A stretch of DNA of 64,000 nucleotides from an uncultured Chloroflexia bacterium (GTDB taxonomy: Bacteria > Chloroflexota > Anaerolineae > Anaerolineales > E44-bin32), in NCBI GenBank assembly GCA_963743255.1, contig CAVUPD010000001.1, positions 122,854 through 186,853 of the forward strand, read 5' to 3'. Of this stretch, positions 27,758 to 55,274 are shown piece after piece. The position numbers and the translations under genes are program-made. The notes below the pieces were generated by a model. That model was not told the origin of the DNA, ran no database searches, and worked only from the letters and a program-made list of their open reading frames with translations. Position 1 is the first letter of the stretch. Each line of letters opens with the position of its first letter.

Positions 27758-28965
27758 ATGTCTGAACAGCATCGCCCCTTGCTGGACGGAGTCATGGTTG
27801 TTGACCTGACGCGTGTACTGGCCGGACCGTATTGCACGATGATGCTTGGAGACCTGGGCGCGGAGGTCGTCAAGGTCGAAGAGCCGAGACTGGGCGATGA
27901 CACGCGTGCATGGGGACCGCCTTTCGCCCCGGGAGGCGAGTCGGCCTATTTTCTTTCTGCCAACCGAAACAAGAGAAGCCTGACGCTCAACCTGAAGACG
28001 GACGAGGGGAAGGCTATCTTACGGCGCTTGATCGCGCGCGGCGACGTCCTCGTAGACAACTTCCGCACCGGCACGCTGGAGAGTTGGGGGCTTCGACTAT
28101 CCCACCCTGCAATCGATCCGTCCGGGGCTGATTGTCTGCTCCATCACCGGCTACGGTCAGACGGGGCCGTACCGTCATCGACCGGGGTACGACTTCATGG
28201 TCCAGGCCATGGGTGGGTTCATGAGCCTGACAGGGCCGGCAGACGGCGAGCCCTTCCGGGCCGGTGTCGCCATCGCTGATCTCGGGGCGGGAATGTTCGC
28301 GGCCACATCGATCCTGGCCGCCCTCTTCGCGCGGGAGCGCACCGGGGACGGGCAGCGCATTGATATCTCTTTACTGGACACGCAGGTTGCGCTGCTGTCC
28401 TACGTGGCCAGCAATTTCCTCGTCTCGGGGCAGCCCCCCACCCGCTACGGGAACGGCCATCCCAATCTCGTTCCGTACCAGTCGTTCCGGGCCCAGGACG
28501 GATATTTCGCCTTTGCCTCAGGGAACGACTCCCAGTGGAAGCGCTTCTGTGAGAGAGTGGACAAGGTCCGAGTGGGCTGAGGATTCGCGCTTTGCTACGA
28601 ACAAGGCACGCGTCGAGAACCGTGGTGCTGTCGTCGAATTGCTGAGCGTTCTGTTTCGGACACGCCCGGCGCAGGCCTGGATCGACTTGTGCGAGGCGAT
28701 CGGGATTCCGGCGGCTCCGATCAATAGCGTCGACCGGGTCTTCGCCGATCCGCAAGTCATCGCGCGCGGGATGCGGACCGAGGTCGACCATCCGACCGCC
28801 GGATGCGTGCCGATGATCGGATCGCCTCTCTGCATCCCGACCTCCCCTGCGCAGATCTTCCGTGCGCCGCCCACCCTCGGGCAGCACACAGACGAAGTGC
28901 TTGTCAGTCTGCTGGGCTACACCGCGGACGAGGTGAGCGCCTGGCACCAGGCTGGCGTCATCTAG
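27758..28965 (+). CDS. family III CoA-transferase (CaiB/BaiF/Frc type), two apparent frameshifts (near 28090 and 28560)
   Basis: RBS GGAGG plus ATG 27758. The sequence reads LDGVMVVDLTRVLAGPYCTMMLGDLGAEVVKVE...SANRNKRS. Deleting one G from the G5 run at 28087-91 restores LESWGFDYPTLQSIRPGLIVCSITGYGQTGPY. The remaining parts lie in ORFs 28197..28580 and 28264..28965. Confidence 0.85.
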
Positions 28966-29060
28966 GCGCCTCAGCGCGATTCGGTCACTCGATCCGGACC
29001 GGTGCGCAGGCGTGAAGTCTGGATGGGGAGTATTCAGACGTACAGGCGGCGGATCGGGCT

Positions 29061-30822
29061 TCAGCCATCGCCGGCTGTAGTGCCTTCTGCGTTCCCAAGC
29101 GTCCGTTCCGTGGGGTGGGGACGCACGACTCGCTGCCCTGTCGGAGCATGCCCGGACTTCCCGATCAACTCGGGCGAGAGTCCAGGGGGAAACCCATACA
29201 TCTCAAGCAGGGGAGGGTCAGGCGGGCCCGGACGGACGACCGGGTAGATCCGCGCTGTCTCGCAGGCATGGGCCACACGCAGGAGGGCCGACTCATCAAA
29301 GTGCCGACCGACCAACATCATGCCCACAGGCAGGCCGTCGGAAAGCGCACACGGGACCGAAAGCGCGGGATGCCCGGTGACATTGAACGCTGCGGTGTTC
29401 GGGGTCATTTCCAGGTTGCGAGGAAAACTCTCCACCCACGATGTCTTTGCGTCAGGGAGGGCCGTGGCCTTCATCGGGGTGGTGGGCAGGAGCAGCACGT
29501 CGACCGTTGTCAGGGCCTCGTCGTAGGCCTGTCTGAGATGCAGCGCCAGATTCTGGGCCCTGGCGTAATAGCGGCCATCATAGCGGCGCAGCATCGCCTC
29601 CCCCAGGAGGATCTGAAACTTGATGGTCTCTGACAGGAGGTGGGGCTTGTCCCGGAATCCGCGGGCATAGGCATCGAGCAAGCTGAGTGGGTAGTATCCT
29701 TTCCAGTTGGTGCCTGTCCCCCGGCCCCGGAACATTTGGGCGGTCCGCCCCTCCACCGCAACGACACGCCAGATGTGACGCGCCTGACGGTGGAGGGGAA
29801 TGGAGATGCTCTTTACCTCCGCCCCGAGGTGAGCCAGGCGAGCAGCAGCCGCGCGCACCGCGGCATCTACATCGTCCTCCGAGGCGGATGGCCAGGCGAA
29901 ACCTTCCTCGAGCACCCCGACCCGCACGCCCTTCACCTCGCCCGTCAAGGCGCGGCTGTAGGCTTCGGGGATGCAGTGGGGCTGCCGGGGGTCCAGATCG
30001 TCTTCTCCGGCCACAGCTTCCAGCAGAAGGGCCAGGTCGATGGTCGTGTCGGCGATCAGGCCGACATGGTCCTGGGTCAGCTCGGCCGACGAAATCCCTG
30101 TGTACGGAACAAGGCCATACGTCGGCTTGAGGCCATACACGCCACACCATGCGCTGGGAATGCGGATCGAGCCACCCTGGTCTGCTCCCAAGGCCAGCTC
30201 GGCTTCACCGGAGGCAACCAGGGCGGCGGGGCCGCTGGTGGACCCCCCCGCAGAGCGACTGAGGGTCATGAGGATTGCGCACGGGGCCTGTATCCGAGGT
30301 GAAGCTGCTGCCGCCGGAGGAGAGATGCTCACAGACTCCTTTGCCCACGATTTCCGCTCCGGCGTCCAGCACACGGGTCACAATGGTGGCATCGACATCC
30401 GGCACGTAGCCTTCGATCACCCGAGAGCCGTTCATCATCGGTACACCGGCTACGCAGATGTTGTCCTTGACCACTACCCGCTTACCCCGCAGCGGGCCAT
30501 CCGCCTTCCCCTTGATGGAACATCTCCAGTACCAGGCGTTGAGGGGGTTCTCCTCCGGTCTCGGCGGCCTCACGTCCTCCCGCGGGTAGCGTACCGGAAG
30601 CGTTGGCTGGTCCGCCGCGGCCACCGCCTCAAAGGAGGCCAGGGGAGCTTGCATCAGGTCCCGGTAGGCTTGCAGGTCTGAGTCGTTCACATCCAGACCC
30701 AGCTCGTCGGACAGAGTGCGCAGGAATTCAAGGGAGGGGAGCTCTGGTCTCCCGATTGCCTTATCAGCCGCAGGCGAATTTGCCTGGGGCAGCTGTTGAA
30801 GCGAAAGGGAACCCTTCCTCAT
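29061..30822 (-). CDS. amidase-signature family hydrolase, one apparent frameshift near 30255; C-terminal end uncertain
   Basis: The N-terminus lies in ORF 30205..31071 (ATG 30822-20: MRKGSLSL...LRGKRVVVKDNICVAGVPMMNGS). The signature GGSTSGPAALVASGEAELALGADQGGSIRIPSAWCG lies in ORF 29061..30374. The last ~60 codons look non-coding-like. Confidence 0.8.
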
Positions 30823-31819
30823 CTTGACTCCGCGACGGTCTGAATGTGTCCGTTCAGTCACCCGTCGATGAAGATCTCGGACGTGGTGCGAAGAGCCAAT
30901 CGCACCAGGATCTGGGGAGAGTGTCTCTGCGCCCCTCCCAAGCTTCCCTATCGCCACCGCCCTCGACGTCGGGGAGGCGGGCGTCCGGATCACGGTGCAA
31001 TTCGATCCGATTGTCTTGGAGTGTGCCCTGCGCGTGCTCCGATGCGCCCCAGGCCGTGTGTCGCCGCCCACGGGTGTCTGTGTTTCATGAAGGGTGCGTC
31101 CTGGAACAACCGTGCGGCCTGATGCCTCACCCGTGCGCCGTGCACATGACGATCGACTGCCTCGACGAGTCCAAGGGACGATCCCTTGTCCCTTCGAACA
31201 TGCGTCAAGGTAGAAAGCACTTCGCGATCAGGCCGATGGACGTGAACCAAGGCGAATCCTAGCACACTCGGTCCTTGTTGCCTGATATCGGCCATTGAAC
31301 AGGTTGTCGCCAGGCCGTCCTAGGGGACTGTCCGAACCAAGCGCGGCACCTCATGTGGCATGTTCGTCAGTCATTTCACTCGGCGTGGTTTCAAGACCGG
31401 TCGTATCTCGACAAACCGTCTCCACGTCGGGCTCCCACTCCATGGTCAAGCCCGCGTGAGAAGGGGAATGGCCAGGGATCGCATACCTATTTCGATTGGC
31501 CGGACCAGTGCCTCACCTTGATTCGTCAAGCCAGAATGAATATACTTGACTATCCCTAAGGCCTCCTTTCAGTGGGAACCCAGCTCGTGCGATTGGAACC
31601 CCCGGGACCAGTTGCGCGCGAAGAATTCACGTCAAGCGGCCGCGCTTTCGAACCGTTGCTCCGGGGCGCGACCCGATGGACTTGAACCCGTGGCCCGCCG
31701 CGACCCCAGGGCCTTGAACCGGCGAGAAACGGGACGGCGAGGCCCGGCCTGTGAGTACGGCCCAGGTGACCTTGGGTGCCCGGCATCGAACCGGTCGGCT
31801 GATGAACTTGGGGGTGTAC

Positions 31820-31828
31820 TGCTATAGA
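31820..31828 (+). promoter_or_regulatory. candidate extended -10 promoter TGCTATAGA upstream of the fdrA-like operon
   Basis: This is the only TGnTAnnnn match near the operon start. It lies ~100 nt before ATG 31932, which has the RBS GGAGAG. Confidence 0.3.
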
Positions 31829-31931
31829 AGGAAAGCCCCCCGCACCTGGCCGAGGAAGGGGGAGGGTATCCTGTCCGCATCCCACAGGCCTGGACCGATC
31901 GGCATCCCGAGTCCAGCAGAGGAGAGGCCCG

Positions 31932-33664
31932 ATGGCAGTCCTCAAGGCTGAAGTTCGTTCGGGCGCCTATTACGATTCAATCGTCCTCATGCAGCTGCAG
32001 CGGGCCTTGACGGAACAGCCCGGCATCCTCGACGCCGGGGTCGTCATGGGCACCGACGCCAACAAGGAAGTCCTGGCGCAGAGCGACCTGCTGGTCGCCG
32101 AAGCCGAGGCCGCCGGCAATGACGACCTGATCATCGTCGTGCGCGGCACGGATGACGACCCTGGCTCAAGCGGCGCTGGCAAAGGTGGATGAGCTCGTGG
32201 CCGCGCGCCGAGGTCGGACCGGCGACCAGGAGTACCACCCGCGCAGCCTTGAGACCGCGGCCAAGATGCTGCCCGAGGCCCAGTGGGTCCTGGTTTCCGT
32301 TCCGGGGCGCTACGCCGCCGGGGTGTCGCGAGACGCCTTGCGCCTGAACAAGCACGTCTTCCTCTACAGTGACAACGTCTCCCTCGAAGATGAGGTCGCG
32401 CTCAAACAGGAGGCGGCCCAGAAGGGGCTCCTGGTCATGGGGCCGGATTGCGGCACGGCGATCGTGAACGGCATCGGCCTGGGGTTTGCCAACAAGGTCC
32501 GCAAGGGCCCCATCGGAGTTGTGGCGGCGTCCGGCACCGGCCTGCAGCAGGTCACCGTGCGGATCCACCAGATGGGAGGCGGCATCACGCATGCCCTGGG
32601 TACCGGGGGGCGCGATCTTTCGGAGGCGGTCAACGCCGTCACCGCCCGCCAGGGCCTCGACTTGATGGCTCGCGACCCGGATGCCAGGGTGATCGTCCTG
32701 GTGTCGAAGCCGCCGTCACCCAAGATCGCCGACACTCTGATCCAGGCGGCGCGTTCGGTCGGTAAGCCCGTGGTGGTCAACTTCATCGGCTATGCCAGCG
32801 CCTCGCGCCGAGTGGACAATGTCCTCTTTGCCACTACCTTCGATGAGACCGCCGAGCTGGCCATCCGGCTGATCGACTCGCCCGAAGACTTCGCCGCGCA
32901 GCCGGATGTGTCCAAGTTCGCGCCCGGCCAGCGCTACCTGCGAGGCCTGTTCTCGGGCGGTACGCTGCAGTACGAGGCCTTGTTGATCCTGCAGGACTAC
33001 GTTCCCGTCGTCTACTCGAACGCCCCGCTGGACAAGAAGAACAAGCTCGAGGACTCGCTGGTCAGCAAGGCGTCACACGGTCATCGACCTGGGCGAGGAC
33101 GAATTCACGGTCGGCCGGCTGCATCCGATGCTGGACAACGATCTGCGCATCCGGCGTCTCGAGAAGGAAGCCGCGGATCTGGAAGTGGCCGTCATTCTGT
33201 TGGACGTCGTTCTGGGTTACGGCGCCCATGCCGACCCGGCCAGTGAGCTGGCTCCGGCGATCGCCGCCGCTATCAAGACTGCCCAAGAGGCCGGCAGACA
33301 GTTGGAGGTGGTGGCGATCGTCTGCGGCACCGATGGTGACCCGCAGGGAATCGAGACCCAGATCAAGCAGCTGCGGGATGCCGGCGCCAAGACCGAGATC
33401 AGCAATGATGCCGCCGCTCGTTATGTGGGTCGATTGCTGCAGGCGATCGAGCGCGCCTCCCAGCCCGGCACCGGTCCGACGATGAAGCCGGTTGATCTGC
33501 TGGCGCTGAAGAACCCCCTGGCAGGGATCAACGTCGGACTGGAATCCTTTGCCGAGAGCCTCAGAGACCAGGGCGCTCAGGCTGTTCACGTGGACTGGAA
33601 ACCCGTTGCCGGAAGCAGTGAACGGTTGGTGAGTATCCTGGAGCGGATGAGACAGGCCAAGTAG
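31932..33664 (+). CDS. fdrA: FdrA-like protein (succinyl-CoA-synthetase-alpha-like CoA-binding/ligase fold), two apparent frameshifts (near 32155 and 33070)
   Basis: MAVLKAEVRSGAYYDSIVLMQLQ..., then LVMGPDCGTAIVNGIGLGFAN...GVVAASGTGLQQV...HALGTGGRD, then HTVIDLGEDEFTVGRLHPMLD. The pieces lie in ORFs 31932..32192, 32152..33246 and 33128..33664. Confidence 0.82.
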
Positions 33665-33932
33665 GTCTTGGGTCGATCGTCTTGAGGGCCGTGGCCCCAC
33701 CGGCGTGGAGGTTCATCTCCTCGGATGTCACACCTCATCAGGGCCGCTCAAGCGATGAACGGCTTGTCGCCGGTGCGGGGTTCCCGATTCGGTCGATCCA
33801 CGCGTGTGCCGCTCCAACCCGGCACTCTCGTCCAGCGTGTAGTCCCGGCCCTGCGCCCGTGGAAGATCGGTCTTTCTTGAGTCTGCACACGGGATGGGCG
33901 TAAGGTCCCCCGCCAACGATCTGGAGGTGCCC

Positions 33933-35175
33933 GTGGATATCGACAAAGCGAACACCGAAGTCACCCAGCGCATGATGGACGCCCGGCCGATCGCCACCAC
34001 GATGGCCAAGGCGATCGAAGTCGTGCCCGGCCTGCACGAGAACATGCTCTTGCATGCGGGTCCACCGGTGACCTGGGAGCGCATGGCCGGACCGATGCGC
34101 GGCGCCATGATGGGCGCGTTGATCTTCGAGGGCAAGGCCAAGAACGGCGACGACGCCGAGAAGATGCTCAAGTCAGGCAAGATCGAGTTCTCGCCCTGCC
34201 ATGAGCACATGTGCGTCGGCCCCATGGCCGGCGTGATCTCGCCTTCCATGCTGGTCTATGTCGTTGAGAATGCAGACCCACAAGATCAAGTGCTTCTCCA
34301 ATCTCAATGAAGGCCGCGGCAAGGTCCTGCGCATGGGCGCCTACAGCCCGGAGGTCCTGGAGAAGCTGCGCTGGATGGAGTCCAGCCTCGGCCCGACGAT
34401 CAAGGCCGCCCTGGAAGCCATCGGCGGCATCGATGTCCGCGCCATCCTTTCCAAGGCGCTTCACATGGGCGATGACGGGCACAACCGCCTGGACGCCGCC
34501 TCGGTCCTGTGGACTACCCAACTGGCCCCGTACATCGCCAAGACCGCCAAGGACAGCGCCACGGCGTTCGAAGTCATCAAGTTCCTGGGCGAGAACGCCT
34601 TGAGCATTCTCAATCCCGTCATGGCCGGCTGCAAGTCCATGACCGCCGCCGGTCACAACGTGGAAGGCAGCACCATCGTCACCATCATGGCACGCAACGG
34701 CACCGATTTCGGCATCAAGGTCAGCGGCCTGGGCGACCAATGGTTCACGGCGCAGTCCCCGATCGTCAAGGCGCTGTACTTCCCCGGCTTCACCGAGGCC
34801 GACGCCTGCCGCGATATCGGCGACAGCGTCATCACCGAAACGGCCGGCATCGGCGGCTTTGCCATGGCGACCGCCCCGGCCCTGGTCACGTTCATCGGCG
34901 GCGTGCCCAGGGACGCCATCAATACCACGCTCGACATGTACGAGATCACCTACGCCGAACACAAGCAGTTCTCCATCCCCTACCTTGACTTCCGCGGCAC
35001 CCCGACCGGAATCGATATCCGCAAGGTGGTCGAAAAGCAGATCGCCCCGCGGGTGAACACGGGCGTCGCCCACAAGGATCCGGGCGTTGGACAGGTCGGG
35101 GCGGGCGTCGTTTCCGCCCCCATGAGCGTGTTCGAAGACGCGCTGGTTGCCTTCGCGGATCGCTACGGCTTCTAG
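33933..35175 (+). CDS. DUF1116 (YlbE-like) protein, one apparent frameshift near 34275
   Basis: RBS GGAGG plus GTG 33933 (alternative ATG 33894). Sequence: DIDKANTEVTQRMM...LLHAGPPVTWERMAGPMRGA...CHEHMCVGPMAGVISPSM, then NLNEGRGKVLRMGAY...GDSVITETAGIGGFAMATAPA. The pieces lie in ORFs 33894..34310 and 34258..35175. Confidence 0.8.
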
Positions 35176-36879: not shown

Positions 36880-36928
36880 GGAACCAGGCCGAGAGCCAGA
36901 GGCGAGGACCCGCTGGTATGTGTCGGCG

Positions 36929-39233: not shown

Positions 39234-39234
39234 C

Positions 39235-39754: not shown

Positions 39755-39800
39755 TGGACACGCCTTCCCTCCGTCACGGGGTGACCCCAGGAGCAGTTCA

Positions 39801-44176: not shown

Positions 44177-44222
44177 CACGCTGCGTCGGTCCGCGTGAGA
44201 TGTGACGTCTAGTCACAGACAG

Positions 44223-44269: not shown

Positions 44270-44352
44270 GCTTCACGAGGTCGAACGGCGTCTCCGGGCG
44301 GGCTTGTCCGAGGCCGTCAGGCAGAAACACTGGCACGCTACAGGGTGACAGC

Positions 44353-47009: not shown

Positions 47010-47010
47010 A

Positions 47011-47886
47011 ATGTGGGAGTTCGCGGCGCGAAGCCTGAATGCCTCGACGGTCTTCACCATTGCGGCGCTGGGAGAGCTGATCGGACAGCGCTCGGGCATT
47101 CTGAATGTCGGCATTGAAGGGGTGATGCTCTTCGGGGCCACGCTGGGGTTCATCGTGGCCAAGACCACCGGGAGCTATCTCCTCGGCCTCCTGGCTGCCG
47201 TGGCCATCGGAGGCCTGATCGCCGCGCTGCACGGCTTCTTTTCCATCACCCTGGGGGGCGACCAGGTCGTCAATGGGATGGGGATCTGGATCCTGGGCTT
47301 CGGCCTGACGGCTTACATCGGCTACCCCTACACGGGGCCGCTGGGCCTAGACCGGATCCCCGACGTGGCAGGCCTTTCGCCCTTCTTCTTCCTCGCCATC
47401 GGGCTGGTGGCCCTGACCTGGTGGGTGTTCTCCAAGACCAGCCTGGGGCTGCGGATCCGATCGGCGGGAGAAAGCCCGTCGGTCACCGAGGTCTCGGGCA
47501 TCAGCGTCACCCGAACGCGTTACCTGAGCGTTGTGGTCAGCGGGATGCTCATGGGCCTGGGCGGGGCGATCTACTCCCTCAGCTACAACCCCGTGTGGAG
47601 CATCAACTTCCTACTGGGCTGGGGCTTCATTGCGCTGGCGCTGGTCTTCTTCTCTATGTGGAATCCCTTCATTCTTTTCGGCGGCTCCATCCTGTTCGGC
47701 ACGCTGTGGCAGCTCTCGCTCAACCCTCAGCTTGTCCTGCAGAGCGTTCTGTCCCGCTACATCTGGAGAACCGTGCCGTTCGTCATCACGATCGCCGCCC
47801 TGGTGCTGATGTCCACCAAGTGGTTCAGTTCGCGATGGGGCGCCGCCAAGCCTGAAGCCCTGGGGCTGCCCCGCTCGGAGGAGTGA
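47011..47886 (+). CDS. ABC transporter permease
   Basis: 291-aa polytopic membrane protein directly following the first permease. Confidence 0.85.
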   Translation: MWEFAARSLNASTVFTIAALGELIGQRSGILNVGIEGVMLFGATLGFIVAKTTGSYLLGLLAAVAIGGLIAALHGFFSITLGGDQVVNGMGIWILGFGLTAYIGYPYTGPLGLDRIPDVAGLSPFFFLAIGLVALTWWVFSKTSLGLRIRSAGESPSVTEVSGISVTRTRYLSVVVSGMLMGLGGAIYSLSYNPVWSINFLLGWGFIALALVFFSMWNPFILFGGSILFGTLWQLSLNPQLVLQSVLSRYIWRTVPFVITIAALVLMSTKWFSSRWGAAKPEALGLPRSEE

Positions 47887-48029
47887 TGCCGACGTTCCGG
47901 TCACGGGCTCCGGCTCCAGACCGGATGTCGATCCCTTCGCTCGGCCCGTCCTGTCGAGCGGAACGTCGGATCCCTTAATTGCACTCCGAGGGGCCGCGGG
48001 CTCACGCCGGGAAGGAAGATGGCAGGACC

Positions 48030-48920
48030 ATGAACACCCATCCGACGCTGCCTGAGTTCGACTATCTCCGGCCTCAGACGCTGGCCGAAGCCAGCGAGTT
48101 CCTCTCCCGCCATTCGGGAGAAGCCCGGGCGTTCATGGGAGGCACCGATGTCCTGGTCCGCATGCGGGACGGAGTCCTGACCCCCCAATTCCTGGTCGAT
48201 GTGAAGGGACTGGACGGGACGAATGATCTGCGCTTCGACCCGAAGGCCGGCCTCACGCTCGGGGCCGCCGTCAGCATGAATCGGGTGATCGCCTCCCCCG
48301 AGGTGCGCATGCATTACCCCCTGCTGGCCGAGGCCTGCCGCTCTGTCGCCAGCTATGCGTTGCGCACGCGGGCAACCGTGGTCGGCAACATCTGCAACGC
48401 CTCTCCCGCCGGGGACTCGATTGGGGCCTGCCTGGTGCTGGATGCTGTGCTCCACATCCACGGTGTGCGCGGCCCGCGCCAGGAGCCGCTGGCATCGTTC
48501 TTCCTCGGCCCTGGCAAGACCAAGCTCGAACCCGGCGATGTCGTCACGGCCATCCAGCTTCCCCTCCCCCCCAAGGGATGTGCCGGGGTGTATCTCAAAC
48601 TGGGACGCAACCAGCTGAGCGACCTGTCCATCGTCGGTGTGACGGCACTGGGCCACCCGGACTCGAGCTGCCCGTCCGGCTTCCGCTTTCGCCTGGCCCT
48701 GGCCTCGGTCGCTCCGGTGCCTCTCGTGCCCGTGGAAGCGGAAAGGCATCTGTCCAACCATCCGATCACGCCCGAGTCGCTGCGTGAGGCGGCCCAGCTG
48801 GCAGCCGACGCCTGCTCTCCGATCGACGACGTTCGCGGAAGCGCCCGCTACCGCAGGCTGATGGTTCGGAACCTGTCCGCCACCGCGCTGGGGCAGGTCT
48901 TGAAGCGGCTGTCCGGCTGA
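48030..48920 (+). CDS. molybdenum hydroxylase FAD-binding (medium) subunit, set 2
   Basis: FDYLRPQTLAEASEFL...FMGGTDVLVRMRDG...TVVGNICNASPAGD...DDVRGSARYRR. Confidence 0.88.
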   Translation: MNTHPTLPEFDYLRPQTLAEASEFLSRHSGEARAFMGGTDVLVRMRDGVLTPQFLVDVKGLDGTNDLRFDPKAGLTLGAAVSMNRVIASPEVRMHYPLLAEACRSVASYALRTRATVVGNICNASPAGDSIGACLVLDAVLHIHGVRGPRQEPLASFFLGPGKTKLEPGDVVTAIQLPLPPKGCAGVYLKLGRNQLSDLSIVGVTALGHPDSSCPSGFRFRLALASVAPVPLVPVEAERHLSNHPITPESLREAAQLAADACSPIDDVRGSARYRRLMVRNLSATALGQVLKRLSG

Positions 48921-48976
48921 CAGGCGGGTTCTCAAGAGAACGCGGGCCGAGGCGGCATGCAGTCTTCGAGGGACCG

Positions 48977-49456
48977 ATGACACTTCACGAGATCCACGTC
49001 ACCATCAACGATGAGCCGGAACAGGTGGCCGTCCCCGCCAACATGACCCTCATGCGCATGCTGCGGGAGAAACTGGCGCTGACCGGCACCAAGAACGGCT
49101 GCTCCGCCGGCGAGTGCGGGGCATGTACGGTGCTGCTCGACGGGGAACCGGTCAACAGCTGCATGGTCCTGGCGGTCGAATGTGACGGAGCCCAGATCGT
49201 CACCGTGGAGGGGCTGGCCAGCGAAGAAGGGCTGGCCCCCGTTCAGGAAACGATCCTCCGTCAGGGGGGCGTCCAGTGCGGGTTCTGCACGCCGGGCATC
49301 CTGATCTCCGCGCACGCACTGCTGGAGCGGAACCCGAATCCGGATGAGGATGAGATCCGCGAGGCGCTGGTTGGCAACTTGTGCCGCTGCACGGGATACG
49401 TGCGCATCATCGAAAGCGTCAAGGAAGCGACCAGGATGCAGTCAGCCGCCGGCTGA
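48977..49456 (+). CDS. molybdenum hydroxylase [2Fe-2S] small subunit, set 2
   Basis: [18 protein letters not shown] and CRCTGY motifs in an intact 159-aa ORF. Confidence 0.92.
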
Positions 49457-49512
49457 CCCGCGCCCGCGGGGACGGTCTGGCTGGATCCGTGCAGTCAGAG
49501 GGGAGAAGAACC

Positions 49513-51868
49513 ATGAAGAGCGCCGGTACGCAAGCCTCGGGTAGCCCTGTAGGCGAGAACGTCCCCCGCATCGACGCCCGTCCGAAGGTGACCGGGGCGG
49601 CGGTGTTTGCGGATGACATCCAGTTCGGGGATTCGCTGCTGCACGCCCGCATCAAGCGCAGTCCCCACCCGCACGCGCTCATCTGCAAGATCGACACCTC
49701 CCGCGCCCGCGCCCTGCCCGGCGTGAAGGCAGTCGTCACCGGCGAGGATTTCCCCCTTCACATCGGGTTGTATCTTCAGGACCGATACATCTTCTGCCGC
49801 GACCGCGTGCGCTACGTCGGCGATCCGGTGGCGGGGGTGGCCGCCACCAGCCCGGAGATCGCCCAGAAGGCCCTCGATCTGATCGACGTGGAGTACGAAG
49901 TGCTCGAGCCGGTCCTGGACCCTGAACTGGGAACCTACCCCAACGCGGCGCTGCTTCACCCCGAGCTGGGCCAGTATCCGGTCGCCAACTTCATCTTCCC
50001 CAAGCCGGGGACGAACATCTCCAATCACTTCAAGATCCGCAAGGGTGATGTCGACAGCGCCTGGAGCCAATGCGCGGCCACGGTCGAGCGCAAATACCGG
50101 ATTCCCCACATTCAACACGTGCCCATCGAACCTCATGTCGCCGTGGCCCAGGTGGAAGAGTCCGGGGAGATCACGCTGTGGGGCAGTTCCCAGTCGCCGT
50201 TCGCCCAGCGCAATCTCATTGCCCAGTCGATGGGGATCTCCCAGAGCCGGATGCGTGTGATCGCGCCGCTGGTGGGCGGCGGGTTTGGAAGCAAGGCCGG
50301 GGTCAGCATGGAGGCCCTGGTGGTGGCCATCGCCACGAAGGCGCACGGACGGCCGGTGAAGCTGCTGCTGACGCGTGAAGAGGAGTTCTACACGGCGTTC
50401 GTGCGCCAGGGACTGGTCGCCCAGTTCAAGATGGGGTGCGATGCCAAGGGCCGGCTCCTGGCCATGGAGAATGTCTTCTACTGGGACGGCGGAGCCTACA
50501 CGGAATACGGCGTCAACGTCACGCGGGCCGCCGGCTACAGCAGCAGCGGCCCGTACGAAGTGCCCAACATCCAGACCGACAGCTACTGCGTCTACACCAA
50601 CCATCCGGTCGGCGGGCCGATGCGCGGCTTCGGTATGCCCGAGATGCACGCCGGATTGGAGCAGTGCATCGACGAGCTTGCCCTTCAGGTCGGGATGGAT
50701 GTGGTTGAGTTCCGCAAGCTCAACTGCCTGAAGACCGGCAGCACGCTGGTGACCGGGAGCAAGATGCATCCGACCGGGTTGCCCGTCTGCATCGAGAAGA
50801 CCGCCGAGGCCATCGGGTGGGGAAAGAAGGCTCCGCCCAGCGCCCCCAACAAGCGGCGCGGCAAGGGGCTGGCCCTGATGTGGAAGGCGCCGGCCATGCC
50901 TCCCAATGCGGGCTCCAGCGCCTGGGTCGAGCTGGCCGAGGACGGCACGGTCACGGTCGGTGTCGGGGGCCAGGAAATCGGGCAGGGAGTCTTCACCGTG
51001 GCTGCCCAGATGGCAGCCGCCGCACTGGGCGTTCCGTACGAGTCTCGTCCGCGTCGCCACGCCGGTCGACACGCGCTACAGCCCCTACGAATGGCAGACC
51101 GTCGCCAGCCGCCTCACCTGGAGCATGGGCAATGCCATCGTAAACGCTGCCCACGACGCCAAGCGCCAGATTCTGGGTACGGTGGCCGAGGCCTGGGGAG
51201 AGACTCCCGAAGACCTGGAGATCGTCCAAGGCGTGGTGGTCTCGTACAAGAGCGAGAAGGAGATCCCGCTCAAGGGCATCGCCATCTACGGCCTTCCCAA
51301 GCCGAATGACCAGGGCTGGAGGGGCGGACCGGTCATCGGGCGTGGCAACTTCATGCCCACGTACGTTACCGGTCTGGATCCAGAAACCGGCCAGGGCGAA
51401 CGCGCCGTCGTGCACTACACCACCGGAGCCCAGGCGGTCGAATTGGAGGTCGACCTGGACACCGGCCGCCTCGAGATCCTCCGGGGAGTCTCGGCCTTTG
51501 ACGTCGGCAAAGCCATCAACCCGGGACAGGTCGAAGCGCAGATGGAGGGCGGTTTCGTTCAGGGCATGAGCTCGGCCCTGTTTGAGAGCCTGAACTTGAA
51601 GGACGGCGTGGTGAGGAGCCCCAGCTTCGTCGACTACCGCATCGCCACGTCGGCCGACGCCCCCATGGACCTGCGCTCCTTCATTGTCGAGGTGGCGCAG
51701 GATGATGGGCCGTGGGGAGCGCGGGGGATTGGCGAGCACTCCATGGTGCCCACCATCCCGGCCATTGCGAATGCCATCTATGACGCGGTCGGGGTCCGTC
51801 TGGAAGGACCCCCGTTCACGGCCGAGAAGGTCTATCTGGCCATGCTGGAGGCCGGGGTTGTGAAGTGA
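49513..51868 (+). CDS. molybdopterin-binding large subunit of a xanthine-dehydrogenase/aldehyde-oxidoreductase-family hydroxylase, set 2; one apparent frameshift near 51040
   Basis: IDARPKVTGAAVFADD, VGGGFGSK, GGPMRGFGMPE, then VRVATPVDTRYSPYEWQTVASR...GIGEHSMVPTIPAIANAIYDA. The pieces lie in ORFs 49381..51309 and 50906..51868. Confidence 0.88.
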
Positions 51869-52105
51869 TGGTGGCGAGCGGCAGGACCCTGGGCAGGCGG
51901 GCCGATAGGATCGGGATGTCCCGCAGCCCCTCCGAGAGAAGGCTGAACGGCAGGATGCTTCCGCAACCCTGTAGATGTCGAGCGGCCGAATGAGCTCAAC
52001 AAGAGGAACTCCGGCCAGGCGCTGCCCGCGTGATCACATTTCGGCGCCGTGCCCTATGGCGCGCGTCGTCCCGTACATCCTGATTTTCCGATAGGAGGAA
52101 ACGCT

Positions 52106-52795
52106 ATGCCCGTGGACATGGAACTCGAAATGGTCTTGCGGCCGCCGCAGATCCCCATGCCGCCGTATCCGCCCAAGGTCATCACGCTGGCCAACGGCAA
52201 GCGGATGGTCGTGCGCCAGGCGCAGCGCGAGGACGTCCCGGCGATCCTCAAGTCGGTTCACCCGTGCCTGTTCATCGAGCGCGACTACTACGACATCGTC
52301 AGCGCCCGGCTGTATGGCGAACTGCTGGCCTGGTACCGCTACCGGGTCAAGAGCGAGTACTGCCTGCTGGGGCAGGTGGACGGCTACCTGGTGGGGATCG
52401 TCAACGGACGGCTGGAGAACGAGAAGGTCGGCATGAGCTACCACACGCTGGCCATCGACCGCGGCCTGCGCATCGGCTCCCACCTGTTCGCAGCCAAGAT
52501 GGAATACCACATCGACTACATCGGGCAGGACCAGATCCTGATCGTGGCCGAGAGCCCGATCGGCTTCCGGCGATGGATGGTCGAGTACCCGCTCGAAGAG
52601 ACGAAGATCCCGCACGAACTGGGGGGCGGCGACTCGTGGGTCCTGACGCGCGAGACCTACCTCAAGGCCAAGCCACGCCTGGTGGTCGGGGACCGTCCGG
52701 TCCCCAAGGCCTTGTTGGACGAGGCCATGGCCGAGATCAAGTTCGCCGACGACGACACCATTCGCGAGCGTATCGCCGGGCTGAAGGGCAGGTGA
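52106..52795 (+). CDS. hypothetical protein, possibly GNAT-fold acyltransferase-like
   Basis: RBS GGAGGA plus ATG 52106. The pattern MVVRQAQREDVPAILKSV...GYLVGIVNG...HTLAIDRGLRIGSHLF resembles GNAT beta-strand/helix motifs. The assignment is tentative. Confidence 0.45.
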   Translation: MPVDMELEMVLRPPQIPMPPYPPKVITLANGKRMVVRQAQREDVPAILKSVHPCLFIERDYYDIVSARLYGELLAWYRYRVKSEYCLLGQVDGYLVGIVNGRLENEKVGMSYHTLAIDRGLRIGSHLFAAKMEYHIDYIGQDQILIVAESPIGFRRWMVEYPLEETKIPHELGGGDSWVLTRETYLKAKPRLVVGDRPVPKALLDEAMAEIKFADDDTIRERIAGLKGR

Positions 52796-52799
52796 GGCC

Positions 52800-53990
52800 A
52801 TGAGAGACGTCGCCATCCTCGGCGTCGGCATGATCCCCTTTGGCCGGCGCGATGAAGACAGCCTGATGGACATGCTGGCCGCCGCCTCCCTGAAGGCACT
52901 GGACGATGCCGGCCTGGGCAACGAGACGGTCGATGCGGTCTACGTCGCCAACATGGGCGGCGGCATGCTGCAGCATCAGGCGTCGATTGCCAGCTCGTTG
53001 GTCGATCGCCTGAGCCTGCTGCCCGCAGCCGCCGAGACCATCGAGAACGGGCCCGCCTCCGGCGCCTCGGCGGTCAAGAACGGCCTGCTGGCGATCGCCT
53101 CCGGTTACTACGACATCGTTCTCGTGGCCGGCGGCGAGAAGATGCGGGAGGTCACCGGCTGGCGCGCCACCGACTTCGTCGCCACCATGACCCACCCGCA
53201 GGCCGAGTACCCCTACGGCATCACCTTGCCTGGGATGGCCGGGATGTTCACCAGGCTGTACATGGAGAAGTACGGCGTGACCCGCGAGCACCTGCTGGCG
53301 ATCTCCCTCAAGAACCAGGAGATGGGCACGCGCAACCCCTACGCCCACGTCGAGATGGCCCTCGATCGGGAGGGCATCTTCGACAGCCCGCACGCCGTCG
53401 TCAACAATCCCGTGTCCGCCGACCCGCTCCACCTCTACGACCTATGTCCGGTGAGCGATGGCGCTGCGGCGCTGGTGCTGTGCCCCGTGGAGATGGCCAA
53501 AAAGCGCGGCAAACCGTATGTCCTCGTCGCCGGCTTCGGCCAGGCCACGGATACGCACACGCTGGCCGAGCGCGACGATCCCACCGACCTCAAGGCCGTC
53601 AGCCTGGCGGCCCAGCAGGCCTTCGCCATGGCCAAGCTCAAGCCGTCCGACGTCAGCGTGGCCGAACTGCATGACGCCTTCACCATCCTCGAGATCGCCG
53701 AAAGCGAACACGTCGGCTTCTTCAAGAAGGGCGAGGGCGGCAAAGCGGCCGTCGCCGGCAAGACGCGCCTCGGCGGGCAGATCCCGATCAATCTCTCGGG
53801 CGGTCTGAAAGCGCGCGGGCATCCCGTCGGCGCGACCGGAGTGGCCCAGATCGTGGATATCGTCTGGCAATTGCGGCATGAGTTGCCAGAGAATCGCCAG
53901 GTCAAGGACGCCACGGTCGGCCTGACGGTCAACTTCGGGGGCTTCGGCAACAATGTCATCGCCTTCGTGCTCAAGAGGGTAGAGGCATGA
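52800..53990 (+). CDS. thiolase-fold (SCP-x/lipid-transfer type) protein lacking the nucleophilic Cys
   Basis: VAILGVGMIPFG...ETIENGPASGASAVKNG...VLVAGGEKM...NLSGGLKARGHPVGATG. Typical thiolases have A-C-A-S-G where this protein has G-P-A-S-G. Confidence 0.8.
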   Translation: MRDVAILGVGMIPFGRRDEDSLMDMLAAASLKALDDAGLGNETVDAVYVANMGGGMLQHQASIASSLVDRLSLLPAAAETIENGPASGASAVKNGLLAIASGYYDIVLVAGGEKMREVTGWRATDFVATMTHPQAEYPYGITLPGMAGMFTRLYMEKYGVTREHLLAISLKNQEMGTRNPYAHVEMALDREGIFDSPHAVVNNPVSADPLHLYDLCPVSDGAAALVLCPVEMAKKRGKPYVLVAGFGQATDTHTLAERDDPTDLKAVSLAAQQAFAMAKLKPSDVSVAELHDAFTILEIAESEHVGFFKKGEGGKAAVAGKTRLGGQIPINLSGGLKARGHPVGATGVAQIVDIVWQLRHELPENRQVKDATVGLTVNFGGFGNNVIAFVLKRVEA

Positions 53991-54337
53991 AAGAGATCCC
54001 GATCGTCGCCTTCAAGTGCAAGAAGTGCGGCAAAATCCACTACCCGTTCCATGACCGCTGCCTGGAGTGCAAGGCGCGTGAGTTCGAAGAATTGCACCCG
54101 GCGGGCCAGGTCAAGCTGGTCACCTTCACCCAGATCTTCAACCTGCCCTGGGGTTTCGACGAGCGCTTCTTGATCATCGGCATCGGGGAGTTCGAGAACG
54201 GCATCAAAGCCATGGGGCGGATCAAGGCCGACGACATCGCCGGCCTCAAGCTTGGGATGAAGATGAAGCCCACCTGGGCGCCCGTCCGCAAGGTCCATGA
54301 CGAGCACGTGTACGGGTTGATGTTCGAGCCGGCCTAG
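53987..54337 (+). CDS. DUF35 Zn-ribbon/OB-fold protein (thiolase partner)
   Basis: ATGA overlap with the thiolase-fold gene. CKKCGKIHYPFHDRCLECK is a rubredoxin-like zinc ribbon, followed by an OB-fold-sized C-terminus. Confidence 0.8.
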   Translation: MKEIPIVAFKCKKCGKIHYPFHDRCLECKAREFEELHPAGQVKLVTFTQIFNLPWGFDERFLIIGIGEFENGIKAMGRIKADDIAGLKLGMKMKPTWAPVRKVHDEHVYGLMFEPA

Positions 54338-54392
54338 GACGCACTTCAGGGCCGGAGCATTCGGTTCACCATACAGGGAGCAGGAGGTCCGG

Positions 54393-55274
54393 ATGAAGCT
54401 GCTCGATCTGACCATCCCACTCGGGATCGCCACGCCGCCGTGGCCGACCTACGAGCCGCTGCAGGTCAAGTACTTCAAGCGCCTGGCACCCAACGGCGCC
54501 AACGGCCAGGTGGTGACTCACTCGAACCACCTGGGGACACACCTCGACGGCGAGATCCATTTCCACACGCCGGGCAAGGACATCGCCAGTCTGGACATGG
54601 ATTTCCTGGTGCACGAGGCGGCCGTCGTCGATCTGTCCGACGTGTGCGGTGACTACGACGTCTACACTTCGAAGATGGTTGAGGAGCGGGTGCAGGTGAA
54701 GGAGGGGGACATCCTGATCATCCACACCGGCTACCACCATTTCGGGTGGGACCAGCCCGGTGCCGATGAGATCCGCTACATGGTGAAGCACCCCGGCCCG
54801 GACCGCGAGTTCGCCGAGTGGGCCAAAACGAAAAAGCTGCGCTGGATCGGCGTCGATTGCGGCAGCGCAGATCACCCGATGAACACGATCATCCGCGATT
54901 GGATGCCGCGCCAGGCGCGCCAGGCGGACAAGGTGTTCCAGAAGAAGTTCGGAAAGCCGCTGGCGGACTACTTCGACGACAGCAAGTACCAACTGATGCA
55001 CCTGGAGATGTTTCCGTTCGGCATCATCCACGCCGAGTGCCTGGGCGGCGATCTCGACCTGCTGGTCAACCGGCGTGCGACCGTCGGTTTCTTCCCGTGG
55101 CGCTTCGTCGACGGAGAAAGCAGCATCGGCCGCTGCGTGGCGCTGGTCGAGGACGACGACTACGCCGCGCTGATGAAGAAGAAAGCGGCGATGCCGAAGA
55201 CCAAGTTCGGCGACGGCTATGATCCGACGCACGTCGAGCGGCTGAACAAGCTGACGATGGCAAACCTGGCCTAG
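54393..55274 (+). CDS. cyclase/kynurenine-formamidase-fold metal-dependent hydrolase (third paralogue)
   Basis: HSNHLGTHLDGEIHFH (HxGTHxDxxxH metal motif) and IGVDCGSADHPMNT. Collinear with both halves of 35204..36879. Confidence 0.82.
   Translation: MKLLDLTIPLGIATPPWPTYEPLQVKYFKRLAPNGANGQVVTHSNHLGTHLDGEIHFHTPGKDIASLDMDFLVHEAAVVDLSDVCGDYDVYTSKMVEERVQVKEGDILIIHTGYHHFGWDQPGADEIRYMVKHPGPDREFAEWAKTKKLRWIGVDCGSADHPMNTIIRDWMPRQARQADKVFQKKFGKPLADYFDDSKYQLMHLEMFPFGIIHAECLGGDLDLLVNRRATVGFFPWRFVDGESSIGRCVALVEDDDYAALMKKKAAMPKTKFGDGYDPTHVERLNKLTMANLA

Follow-up and report, generated by a model that had tools for sequence, protein, structure and literature searches.

Positions 27758-55274 of the DNA considered here, a 64-kb, high-GC stretch of contig CAVUPD010000001.1 (the whole stretch is referred to as the window), hold a compact gene island of an uncultured Chloroflexota bacterium. 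In our judgement, there is about an even chance that this island is a nucleobase-catabolic locus of uncultured Anaerolineae-type Chloroflexota comprising two modules, the first of which would encode an oxidative route of pyrimidine breakdown. A more specific version is put forward tentatively, as possible but short of probable: an energy-conserving oxidative pyrimidine route in which the large molybdopterin subunit MoL1, with its flavin adenine dinucleotide (FAD) and iron-sulfur (FeS) subunits and CoxG, would be the orphan uracil/thymine dehydrogenase, a tandem cyclase of non-AtzD type would act as the barbiturase, and AllF/AllG would carry out phosphorolysis of ureidomalonate to malonamate and carbamoyl phosphate, capable of supporting ATP formation. 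In this version, the second module would add GNAT-fold, Cys-less thiolase and DUF35 chemistry for another base, and the route would be widespread in sediment and wastewater Anaerolineae, with variants in actinomycetes and haloarchaea. Gene content, co-conservation, homologies and the residues of related transporters are the observations from which every chemical step of this proposal is inferred. The general designation given in the first-pass annotation of the sequence, a catabolic cluster for N-heterocycles of the nucleobase type, is supported.

Genes were called from the list of open reading frames (ORFs), a frame plot and Pfam scans of fragments. Coding is dense from ~27.7 to 55.3 kb, where 22 genes are found, all on the plus strand except the amidase gene:

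27758-28965, plus: family III CoA-transferase (CoA_transf_3; three fragments cover positions 1-366 of PF02515)
29061-30822, minus: amidase-signature hydrolase (PF01425 on both fragments)
30823-31931, no strand: presumed promoter/control stretch of 1.1 kb, weakly coding in the frame plot and separating the divergently oriented amidase and FdrA genes
31932-33664, plus: FdrA/AllF-like subunit (Pfam CoA_binding and Ligase_CoA; succinyl-CoA-synthetase-alpha-like)
33894-35175, plus: DUF1116/AllG-like subunit (PF06545, AllG, E=6e-72)
~35204-36879, plus: two-domain cyclase-fold protein, the double cyclase (PF04199 twice)
36854-37792, plus: NmrA-like NAD(P) oxidoreductase (PF05368)
37789-38355, plus: DinB/MST-fold protein (PF04978 / PF12867)
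38352-39233, plus: FAD subunit of Mo-hydroxylase 1 (PF00941 and PF03450)
39235-39804, plus: 2Fe-2S subunit of Mo-hydroxylase 1, FeS1 (PF01799 and PF00111)
39801-42174, plus: molybdopterin large subunit 1, MoL1 (Pfam Ald_Xan_dh_C, MoCoBD_1 and MoCoBD_2)
42146-42600, plus: CoxG of the SRPBCC type (PF06240)
42569-44176, plus: BMP-family substrate-binding protein (PF02608; true start probably near 42830)
44239-45900, plus: ATPase of the ATP-binding cassette (ABC) type (PF00005 twice)
45897-47009 and 47011-47886, plus: two ABC permeases (PF02653 twice)
47979-48920, plus: FAD subunit of Mo-hydroxylase 2, FAD2 (Pfam)
48977-49456, plus: 2Fe-2S subunit of Mo-hydroxylase 2 (Pfam)
49513-51868, plus: molybdopterin large subunit 2, MoL2 (Pfam)
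52106-52795, plus: GNAT-fold protein of 229 amino acids (predicted fold; no Pfam family)
52800-53990, plus: Cys-less thiolase-fold protein (Pfam and motif alignment)
53987-54337, plus: DUF35 / zf-ChsH2 zinc-ribbon OB-fold protein, partner of the thiolase-like one (Pfam)
54393-55274, plus: single-domain cyclase-fold hydrolase, Cyc3 (PF04199)

This inventory largely reproduces that of the first-pass annotation, which had counted about 25 genes, nearly all on the plus strand; the strand bias holds, and the count drops to 22. All the protein families it had named are recovered in their places (by Pfam, the GNAT-like one via its predicted fold), as are start/stop overlaps at 37789, 38352, 45897 and 53987, which agree with the ORF coordinates. 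So are the three cyclase domains (two in the ~35204-36879 protein, one at 54393-55274), two full sets of FAD, 2Fe-2S and molybdenum-cofactor subunits (38352-42174, followed by CoxG, and 47979-51868) and the BMP importer (42569-47886) lying between both sets. Uricase, allantoinase, an AtzD/barbiturase-family gene, an oxygenase and a regulator had been reported as missing, and Pfam and tblastn likewise reveal none of them inside the island.

Related loci were collected by scanning one genome per species with a MoL1 fragment, which returned 80 loci at 62-95% identity, almost all of them in Chloroflexota metagenome-assembled genomes (MAGs) of Anaerolineae, Caldilineae and 'Chloroflexia'. The window proteins were compared with related loci by tblastn, the Chloroflexota set comprising 83 loci (single loci are denoted by L-numbers); upstream counts refer to the 46 loci whose sequence reaches 8.5 kb or more upstream and downstream counts to the 37 with enough downstream sequence. 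The MoL1 hydroxylase is preceded by FdrA, AllG and the double cyclase as a group in 33 of the 46 loci; CoxG follows the hydroxylase in 27 of the 37, and a transporter also follows it in 27. The NmrA gene is present in ~31 loci, either in the same place or downstream of the transporter; DinB is sporadic (10/46), and a second hydroxylase set adjoins the first module in 11/37 loci. The operon is conserved and, since its neighbour genes are co-conserved across loci, its arrangement is far from chance; co-occurrence of the neighbours had been proposed as a check on the first-pass annotation, and these counts bear it out. Module-1 genes with MoL1 86-95% identical to that of Chloroflexota were also seen in a MAG labelled Candidatus Puniceispirillum (L073) and in one labelled Actinomycetota (L001), which suggests binning or labelling errors rather than true presence in those phyla.

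The view that all these genes form a single linear pathway (two hydroxylations, hydrolysis, then C-C cleavage), expressed in the first-pass annotation, had to be abandoned: the island consists of two paralogous modules, each with a Mo-hydroxylase and a cyclase-fold hydrolase, and each accompanied by its own AllF/AllG in other genomes. Module 1 (27758-47886) includes the CoA-transferase, FdrA/AllF, AllG, the double cyclase, NmrA, DinB, a Mo-hydroxylase with CoxG and the BMP importer; module 2 (47979-55274) includes Mo-hydroxylase 2, the GNAT-fold protein, the Cys-less thiolase, DUF35 and Cyc3. Elsewhere, module 2 represents a separate conserved operon, as judged from the contexts of thiolase-like homologues on three long contigs, with the order FAD, 2Fe-2S, MoL2, AllF, AllG, Cyc3, 229-residue protein, thiolase-like protein, DUF35 and with neither module 1 nor a transporter. 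Its products correspond to those of the window (MoL2 70-77%, Cyc3 83-86% and the 229-residue protein 86-87% identical; FAD2 and its 2Fe-2S partner 52-78% identical to those of the module-2 operons L091-L094), its AllF is 42-45% identical to the window FdrA and its AllG 50-52% to the window AllG, and one of the three contigs adds AllH. In the window, module 2 lacks AllF/AllG of its own, starts directly after the transporter of module 1 and has Cyc3 shifted to the end. The modules are two versions of one scheme, i.e., hydroxylase, cyclase and AllF/AllG. A microcompartment locus (BMC, EutN/CcmL, aldehyde dehydrogenase, DeoC), together with an ADP-forming acyl-CoA synthetase, adjoins module 2 in L092/L093 (13947-19049) and is probably unrelated to it.

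The carbamoyl-transfer step is modelled on Escherichia coli, where FdrA/YlbE/YlbF constitute AllFGH, the oxamic transcarbamylase converting oxalurate and phosphate into carbamoyl phosphate and oxamate, with AllH (DUF2877, PF11392) required for its activity (PMC11326118). There it belongs to the anaerobic allantoin pathway, in one operon with the carbamate kinase AllK and with allB, allC, allD and allE. Intact orthologues of the window FdrA score 564 and 546 bits with NF004760 'FdrA', above its cut-off of 433; full-length identity to the E. coli proteins is 37-41% for FdrA (to AllF) and 44-52% for AllG. Across copies from E. coli, Aminobacter, Peptoclostridium, module 1 and module 2, 82 positions are invariant in AllF (nine family members) and 99 in AllG, and the copies from these five sources are about equally far apart (38-56%). 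Because of the 37-52% identity to AllF/AllG of oxamic transcarbamylase, phosphorolytic removal of a carbamoyl group seems to be the best reading of the FdrA/AllG step, FdrA being a candidate large subunit of an N-acylurea transcarbamoylase. As to the other E. coli components, tblastn with three AllH sequences gave no match in the 64-kb window, AllK, AllC, AllD and AllE gave none either there or in the 83 loci, and AllB-like (dihydropyrimidinase-like) genes occur only in L056 and L062, both devoid of FdrA/AllG.

The nature of the substrate is suggested by the transporters. The window encodes a PF02608 binding protein, a two-domain ATPase and two PF02653 permeases, i.e., a full BMP (PnrA-like) importer. 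In 15 related loci, an NCS2 permease takes the place of this system at the same position; one or the other accounts for the 27/37 loci with a transporter after the hydroxylase, and just one locus has both. For twelve complete NCS2 ORFs, identity to E. coli UraA amounts to 31-34% (149-187 bits), and the same ORFs score 73-112 bits with the urate carrier UacT and <=64 bits with the xanthine carrier XanQ. The roles of UraA residues in uracil binding have been described (PMC5539350). Five of the permeases were aligned to UraA and keep F73, E241, H245, G289 and E290, whereas position 245 is D/M and position 290 is Q in XanQ and UacT; the GENNS motif occurs in 12/12 permeases, so G289 and E290 hold in all of them. 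NCBIfam models rank uracil permease highest for these proteins, followed by RutG and then xanthine permease. The nearest solved relatives of the BMP protein are atrazine-binding AtzT (6pi5, 97 bits) and a Brucella lipoprotein (3s99, 86 bits), the other BMP-family chains listed reaching only 26-40 bits. Taken together, the interchange of NCS2 and BMP systems, the UraA-like residues and the relatives of the BMP protein indicate that the substrate is most likely a free nucleobase of the uracil type and not a nucleoside. The first-pass annotation had described the importer as being of the nucleoside/nucleobase type; the nucleobase part of that description is favoured, and the nucleoside part disfavoured, by the permease residues, the BMP relatives and the pyrimidine-type permeases of the actinomycete clusters.

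MoL1 contains the motifs GGGFGPK and GVGEAG and lacks AYxCSFR. Its nearest chains in the PDB are mycobacterial CoxL (8uem, 521 bits) and quinoline oxidoreductase (1t3q, 474 bits). An orthologue (L074, 9269-11614) scores 889 bits with NF040766, 'aerobic carbon-monoxide dehydrogenase large subunit, group 5' (cut-off 950), and the score of MoL1 with TIGR02416 is 524 against a cut-off of 991, so that it stays below every NCBIfam cut-off. The possibility that MoL1 is a carbon monoxide (CO) dehydrogenase was rejected, as the AYxCSFR loop of form I CO dehydrogenase is absent and the hydroxylase motif GGGFGPK is present instead. Since the score falls just below the CO-dehydrogenase cut-off (889 vs. 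950), MoL1-type genes in Chloroflexota metagenomes will probably be mistaken for signs of CO oxidation. The xanthine dehydrogenase equivalog model gives 436 bits for MoL1 and 508 for MoL2 at a cut-off of 780, and other models of this family score lower; neither large subunit attains a xanthine dehydrogenase or aldehyde oxidoreductase equivalog cut-off. Together with the co-conservation of the neighbours, this is the reverse of the outcome (nesting in such clades, with neighbours not co-conserved) that the first-pass annotation had named as its refutation. MoL1 homologues stand beside pyrimidine permeases in the actinomycetes Embleya (45% identity) and Nonomuraea (45-46% as the range for both). 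By analogy, from the type of transporter and the gene context, MoL1 may be regarded as a uracil/thymine-type dehydrogenase. Two small genes with no assigned family, one of them weakly cytochrome b561-like (E=3e-4), were observed downstream of the permease/NmrA genes in L083 (18863-19762) and L082 (18759-19687); they might provide a membrane electron acceptor for the hydroxylase. Thermomicrobium roseum, a cultured relative, was considered as a model organism and rejected: its large subunit is 43% identical, but the neighbourhood is unrelated (5-oxoprolinase-type genes).

MoL1 and MoL2 share 31% identity, the same value that each shows with E. coli XdhA. The nearest PDB chain of MoL2 is the alpha subunit of 4-hydroxybenzoyl-CoA reductase (4-HBCR; 1rm6, 353 bits). 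The NCBIfam models give it 513 bits for 4-HBCR alpha (cut-off 995) and 508 for XdhA, and FAD2 scores 122 against a cut-off of 405, hence both subunits remain below the 4-HBCR equivalog level.

The double cyclase is a single ORF of 556-557 amino acids in the relatives and is strongly conserved, with 79-92% identity across the 120 best database clusters and 1752 proteins matching at E<=1e-10. The metal motif HxGTHxDxxxH is kept in its C-domain (HLGTHMDGEKH) and in Cyc3 (HLGTHLDGEIH) but lost in the N-domain (NTVGTHLVGERAFH; H to T, D to V, H to A). Among PDB sequences, its relatives are only kynurenine-formamidase-like hydrolases (E 1e-4 to 1e-8); the cyclase-fold isatin hydrolase is a cyclic amidohydrolase (PMC6117287). 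A ring opener of the AtzD/barbiturase family gave no tblastn match in the window or in the 83 Chloroflexota loci. Both this ring opener and carbamate kinase are absent from these loci, and the cyclase is absent from both actinomycete loci described below. The distributions of the cyclase and of the AtzD-family ring opener are thus complementary, as they should be if the cyclase-fold protein fulfils the task of the ring opener. It is proposed from these sequence comparisons that the double cyclase would be a ring-opening amidohydrolase, a functional analogue of barbiturase.

Enzymes suitable for the lower part of the route are also present. The amidase (NF005565 'amidase', 476 bits) is common to only one related locus, L006; a CN-hydrolase with 75-84% conservation lies beside FdrA/AllG in 24 other loci, and none was found in the window. 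The amidase is a variable accessory, being encoded on the opposite strand and replaced by the CN-hydrolase in the 24 relatives; hydrolysis of a linear amide of the malonamate type is the function proposed for it. An orthologue of the CoA-transferase (L022) gives 286 bits with the succinate-glutarate CoA-transferase model, 227 with CoA:oxalate, 207 with mesaconate and 180 with formyl-CoA transferase; the first three are all below the NCBIfam cut-off, and the nearest models are of the dicarboxylate type. The CoA-transferase gene lies upstream of FdrA in ~20 loci, and homologues (36-43% identity) occur near the related Haloarcula and Nonomuraea clusters. A biotin-dependent decarboxylase complex resembling mmdA adjoins module 1 in L082, with the same carboxyltransferase family represented in L016 and L038; such a complex could provide the final part of the route, to acetyl-CoA.

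The remaining proteins of the second module are less readily accommodated. The 229-residue protein has no Pfam or NCBIfam match, and its homologues (83-94% identical) are all annotated as 'hypothetical'. Its AlphaFold model (predicted local distance difference test, pLDDT, 78; predicted template modelling score, pTM, 0.80) matched only GNAT acyltransferases in a Foldseek search of the PDB (163 matches at E<=1e-3, best E 6e-7, TM scores of 0.4-0.6); the model thus upholds the GNAT-like call of the first-pass annotation and predicts a GNAT fold for this protein. A paralogue (31-38% identity) is encoded upstream of FdrA in seven module-1 loci. That this 229/241-residue family might be a diverged form of AllH was also considered and discarded (hhalign probability 0.1%; predicted fold GNAT), and a profile search of PDB sequences with the family returned nothing. 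In the thiolase-like protein, 85-93% identical across the 120 clusters listed, the EAACASG loop of the archaeal thiolases 7yvy and 6esq reads ENGPASG, so that the nucleophilic cysteine is missing, just as the epithet 'Cys-less' had implied; the downstream GHP histidine is kept. DUF35 always follows directly downstream of the thiolase-like gene in the module-2 contexts, and the pair is absent from most module-1 loci.

According to the proposed scheme, a free nucleobase, most likely uracil or thymine, would be imported by the BMP ABC system (by the UraA-like permease in the relatives) and hydroxylated at C6 by Mo-hydroxylase 1 (FAD, 2Fe-2S, molybdenum-cofactor and CoxG proteins) to yield (5-methyl)barbiturate. 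The ring would then be opened by the double cyclase, giving ureidomalonate (3-oxo-3-ureidopropanoate), the one-carbon-longer homologue of oxalurate. With phosphate, AllF/AllG would cleave ureidomalonate to carbamoyl phosphate and malonamate, a step that mirrors the action of E. coli oxamic transcarbamylase on oxalurate. Malonamate would be hydrolyzed to malonate and ammonia by the amidase in the window or by the CN-hydrolase in the 24 relatives, and the family III CoA-transferase would convert malonate into malonyl-CoA. Module 2 would follow the same logic for a second base, employing hydroxylase 2, Cyc3, the GNAT-fold protein and the Cys-less thiolase/DUF35 pair. In the full-text literature, no description of the cluster, the pathway or a phosphorolytic ureidomalonate step was found, the work retrieved being that on AllFGH and the classical barbiturase; the route is therefore regarded as undescribed and may reveal the genes of long-orphan enzymes. 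The earlier statement that no characterised pathway has this enzyme set agrees with this outcome and with the NCBIfam equivalog scores lying below their cut-offs.

Several points speak against this route. Its support consists wholly of homology and gene neighbourhood, and NmrA, DinB, GNAT-fold, thiolase-like and DUF35 proteins have no step in the scheme, although all but DinB are well conserved. AllH, needed in E. coli, is absent from the window and present in just 8/83 loci; tblastn of the 83 loci revealed no carbamate kinase near any Chloroflexota cluster, so that the scheme has no further step for carbamoyl phosphate. The closest solved relative of the BMP protein binds atrazine. Proteins of the AtzT type generally bind purines, and the second hydroxylase set beside module 1 might stand for two hydroxylations in succession, in the manner of purine routes. 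Identity of MoL1 to the actinomycete enzymes is just 45-46%. Finally, the ring openers encoded next to the latter are assigned by NCBIfam to cyanuric acid amidohydrolase (469-486 bits, cut-off 360), in a comparison that contained no barbiturase model and did not separate barbiturase from AtzD.

The island also departs from its relatives in the integrity of the reading frames. Alignment of intact orthologues back to the window revealed at least 13 frameshifts: two each in the CoA-transferase, FdrA, double cyclase and CoxG genes (each of which is spread over three frames) and one each in the genes for the amidase (near 30270), AllG (near 34272), FeS1 (near 39600-39625), MoL1 (near 40500-40530) and MoL2 (near 51046), those of FdrA being at ~32157-32164 and 33065-33069. 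The orthologues are single-frame in L074, L022 and L083, and the window fragments are 55-97% identical to intact orthologues, the frame changes accounting for the interruptions; the closest relative, L002, has frame changes too, at other positions. To the left of the island, an OmpR-type response regulator gene (26374-27280, minus) also seems to be split by a frame change, as Pfam matches only the C-terminal receiver part and a receiver-like N-terminus (MSARILVVDDEPS...) lies in an overlapping minus-strand ORF; this suggests that indel errors are window-wide. The frameshift sites do not fall within obvious homopolymer runs, so this error signature could not be used. Because the orthologues are intact, a flanking gene is shifted as well and L002 is shifted elsewhere, the breaks are considered to be assembly indels and not gene decay, which is a strong inference rather than proof, and the genes of the island are therefore treated as functional.

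Among the other explanations, a purine route is rather unlikely. It would take hypoxanthine, xanthine or urate through two rounds of hydroxylation, opening by the cyclases and carbamoyl removal by AllF/AllG, with the modules acting sequentially on the pyrimidine and imidazole rings. Two hydroxylase sets (side by side in the 11/37 loci mentioned above), two cyclase types and the two AllF/AllG pairs of other genomes would suit such a route, as would the near-equal scores of MoL2 to XdhA and 4-HBCR, the PucR regulators of the actinomycete clusters and the allFGH and arcC genes of Peptoclostridium acidaminophilum, which stand beside PucR and two genes annotated as xanthine permease. However, the NCS2 permeases carry E290 and H245 of UraA, not Q and D/M, and score 2-5x higher with UraA; the actinomycete permeases are closest to RutG and UraA, and cytosine deaminase with CodB, or dihydropyrimidinase-type genes, accompany related clusters. 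Just one AllF/AllG pair is found in the window, and module 2 also stands on its own elsewhere, apart from module 1 and any transporter, in keeping with use of the two in parallel and not one after the other. Quite unlikely, in turn, is a CoA-thioester pathway following the logic of the first-pass annotation, with FdrA/DUF1116 as an ADP-forming acyl-CoA synthetase, one or both hydroxylases acting on a heteroaroyl-CoA in the manner of furoyl-CoA dehydrogenase or 4-HBCR, and C-C cleavage, a speculative step, by the thiolase-like/DUF35 pair. NCBI names FdrA 'acyl-CoA synthetase' and its domains are succinyl-CoA-synthetase-alpha-like, the nearest solved structure to MoL2 is 4-hydroxybenzoyl-CoA reductase, and the CoA-transferase, GNAT-fold and thiolase-like/DUF35 proteins are all encoded in the island. 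Yet the sole characterised FdrA/DUF1116 enzyme is a transcarbamoylase, with which 82 + 99 invariant residues are held in common, MoL2 and the FAD subunit fall far below the 4-HBCR cut-offs (513 vs. 995 and 122 vs. 405), and most module-1 loci lack the thiolase-like/DUF35 pair. Moreover, carbamoyl chemistry is suggested by the variants in actinomycetes and on enterobacterial plasmids, where AllF/AllG stand together with a ureide ring opener and carbamate kinase.

A slim chance is given to AllF/AllG being a true oxamic transcarbamylase, supplied with oxalurate from a five-membered or oxidised ureide (parabanate, 5-hydroxyhydantoin or alloxan-type), the resulting oxamate being converted via oxalate to oxalyl-CoA. 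The 44-52% identity of AllG to the E. coli enzyme, the likeness of the CoA-transferase to the CoA:oxalate (227 bits) and formyl-CoA (180 bits) enzymes and the possible action of the amidase or CN-hydrolase as an oxamate amidohydrolase would be in line with this, but no homologue of allB, allC, allD, allE or allK was found in the window or with the FdrA/AllG/cyclase core, nor was uricase or an oxygenase in the island, and no oxalyl-CoA decarboxylase was seen. The about equal distances between AllF/AllG copies (38-56%) fit different substrates within one family, and a permease of the uracil type has no obvious link to oxalurate precursors. The chance is very small that the island is decaying, a random juxtaposition or a set of form II CO or aldehyde dehydrogenases that have nothing to do with the adjoining genes. 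The accumulation of at least 13 frameshifts in 27 kb, the GC content of the island (62-66%) below that of the left flank (67-69%) and the 889 bits of MoL1 with the group 5 model (cut-off 950) could be cited in favour of it; the arguments already given for assembly indels (fragments 55-97% identical to intact orthologues, a shifted flanking gene and other shift sites in L002) count against decay, gene order kept in dozens of genomes against chance, and the absence of AYxCSFR along with the presence of GGGFGPK against CO dehydrogenase. The oxidative pyrimidine route is the preferred reading.

The surroundings of the island are of a different kind. Pfam identifies ComEC, SIMPL and a two-component pair in the left flank and a Peptidase_MA and an SBP_5 protein in the right flank; by tblastn, none of the flanking genes is common to the related loci. 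The lower GC content of the island is compatible with horizontal acquisition, and the amidase/CoA-transferase end and the position of Cyc3 are unlike those in relatives. A megablast comparison of the island with plasmids gave a 225-bp 2Fe-2S stretch as the sole match. The 30823-31931 gap, where no regulator gene was identified, has a lower GC content and could be an operon control region or a relic of a lost gene; Rfam shows no riboswitch or other RNA in the whole window, nor, even at E<=1, in this gap.

If the proposed route is true, its consequences are manifold. Uracil/thymine dehydrogenase activity has been known since the 1950s; to our knowledge, no sequence of this enzyme has been published, and the present reading would assign genes to it. 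It would further provide a second, unrelated solution to barbiturate ring opening and widen the AllFGH family from oxalurate to general N-acylurea phosphorolysis, a role through which the degradation of ureides would be tied to carbamoyl phosphate and ATP. The way in which the abundant but uncultured Anaerolineae recover nucleobases from dead biomass would become understandable, and a frequent annotation error, in which MoL1-type genes are taken as CO dehydrogenase, would be corrected. Since related clusters are carried by cultured organisms (Embleya, Nonomuraea and Halostagnicola), the idea is directly testable.

These clusters of cultured organisms were found by tblastn against annotated plasmid and large-replicon records. 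In Embleya sp. NBC_00888 (L097; NZ_CP108785, ~2.146-2.170 Mb), ~24 kb encode XdhC, AllG, AllF, PucR, a RutG/UraA-like permease, FAD and FeS subunits, a 45%-identical MoL1, CoxG, a CN-hydrolase (50% identical to that of Chloroflexota), an AtzD/barbiturase-family ring opener, carbamate kinase and a carboxyltransferase. The Nonomuraea gerenzanensis cluster (L098; NZ_LT559118, ~9.258-9.300 Mb) includes a ring opener, a 42%-identical CoA-transferase, a MoL1-like set, two pyrimidine-type permeases, PucR, AllH and AllF; the permeases of both actinomycetes score best to RutG and UraA. Hence, AllF, an FAD/FeS/MoL1-like hydroxylase and pyrimidine-type NCS2 permeases (the latter as in the Chloroflexota relatives) are common ground, whereas the actinomycete clusters, unannotated and uncharacterised as well, differ in possessing the AtzD/barbiturase-family ring opener and PucR (in Embleya, also carbamate kinase) and in lacking the cyclase, NmrA, the GNAT-fold and the thiolase-like proteins.

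Cyc3 leads to another group of clusters, being ~50% identical to haloarchaeal cyclases adjoining nucleobase transporters. In Halostagnicola, Halorussus and Haloarcula, a Cyc3-like cyclase is next to NCS2/SLC23 or BMP transporters in 3/3 cases; on the megaplasmid of Halostagnicola larsenii, it lies between a Mo-hydroxylase set with SRPBCC and the genes of cytosine deaminase and CodB. Single features are shared further: SRPBCC in Halostagnicola and Haloarcula, a hydroxylase of the xanthine dehydrogenase family in Halostagnicola and a CaiB-type CoA-transferase in Haloarcula. Unlike the island, the haloarchaeal clusters have no AllF/AllG, their Mo subunit is 30-33% identical to MoL1, and 3/3 contain an AllB/dihydropyrimidinase-like amidohydrolase. 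Within the phylum, in the Caldilineae locus L056, the genes of a class III aminotransferase, a CN-hydrolase and a dihydropyrimidinase-like protein come after those of a MoL1 orthologue and a cyclase. A Cyc3-like cyclase (40%) was also observed in Rhodococcus ruber pmega_2 (L085; NZ_CP145321, 93974-122750) after a nitrilase-related CN-hydrolase, a cupin and Rieske/VanB oxygenase pairs, with a distant DUF1116 gene (30% identity) 11 kb away; it is probably another N-heterocycle catabolic cluster using the Cyc3 subfamily.

A further variant resides on conjugative plasmids, some of them from clinical isolates. This module, seen in Aminobacter sp. SR38 pSR8 (L089; NZ_CP062120, 59842-73654) and many Klebsiella/Citrobacter/Enterobacter plasmids, comprises genes for a hypothetical protein, fdrA, DUF1116, an AtzD-like ring opener, carbamate kinase (arcC), an amidohydrolase, a BMP ABC transporter and DUF2877. 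The 58% identity of its ring opener to AtzD makes cyanuric acid the probable substrate, and the module looks like an uncharacterised cyanuric-acid/ureide pathway yielding carbamoyl phosphate; AllF/AllG are thus combined with ureide ring openers elsewhere. AllF/AllG and a BMP importer occur there as in the island, together with a ureide ring opener, whereas the Mo-hydroxylase is missing and carbamate kinase and DUF2877 are added.

Of the characterised enzymes, kynurenine formamidase and isatin hydrolase (PF04199) have a fold like that of the cyclases and the HxGTHxDxxxH motif seen in the C-domain and Cyc3. Their similarity to the cyclases is very low; the domains of the island are larger (~280 vs. 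~210 amino acids), the tandem arrangement with a degenerate N-domain is particular to it, and the genomic context is other.

The oxidative pyrimidine pathway of Rhodococcus erythropolis involves uracil/thymine dehydrogenase, barbiturase, the product of which is 3-oxo-3-ureidopropanoate, and ureidomalonase (Soong et al. 2001, 2002, as cited in PMC3758960). The proposed barbiturate, ureidomalonate and malonate are alike in both routes, and a three-subunit Mo-hydroxylase and an amidase-signature gene are present in the island. The first enzyme of the Rhodococcus pathway is expected to be a dehydrogenase of the Mo-Fe-flavin type, and we know of no published sequence for its genes. Ureidomalonase is an amidase-signature enzyme that releases urea; the amidase-signature gene of the island, by comparison, recurs only in L006 and gives way to the CN-hydrolase elsewhere. 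No AtzD/barbiturase-family gene is found in the island, the cyclase-fold protein being in its place, and ureidomalonate would be cleaved with phosphate to carbamoyl phosphate and malonamate, in contrast to its hydrolysis to urea and malonate in Rhodococcus. With E. coli AllFGH, the island has in common AllF and AllG homologues adjoining in the same order and, as proposed, the chemistry of N-acylurea phosphorolysis to carbamoyl phosphate. Here, however, the substrate would be ureidomalonate instead of oxalurate, AllH, AllK and the allBCDE neighbours are missing from the window, and AllF/AllG are accompanied by a Mo-hydroxylase, a cyclase-fold hydrolase and a nucleobase importer. Overall, the island belongs to neither the E. 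coli AllFGHK system nor the Rhodococcus barbiturase pathway, because it departs from each in a defining feature, i.e., the AllH/AllK operon of the former and the AtzD-family barbiturase of the latter.

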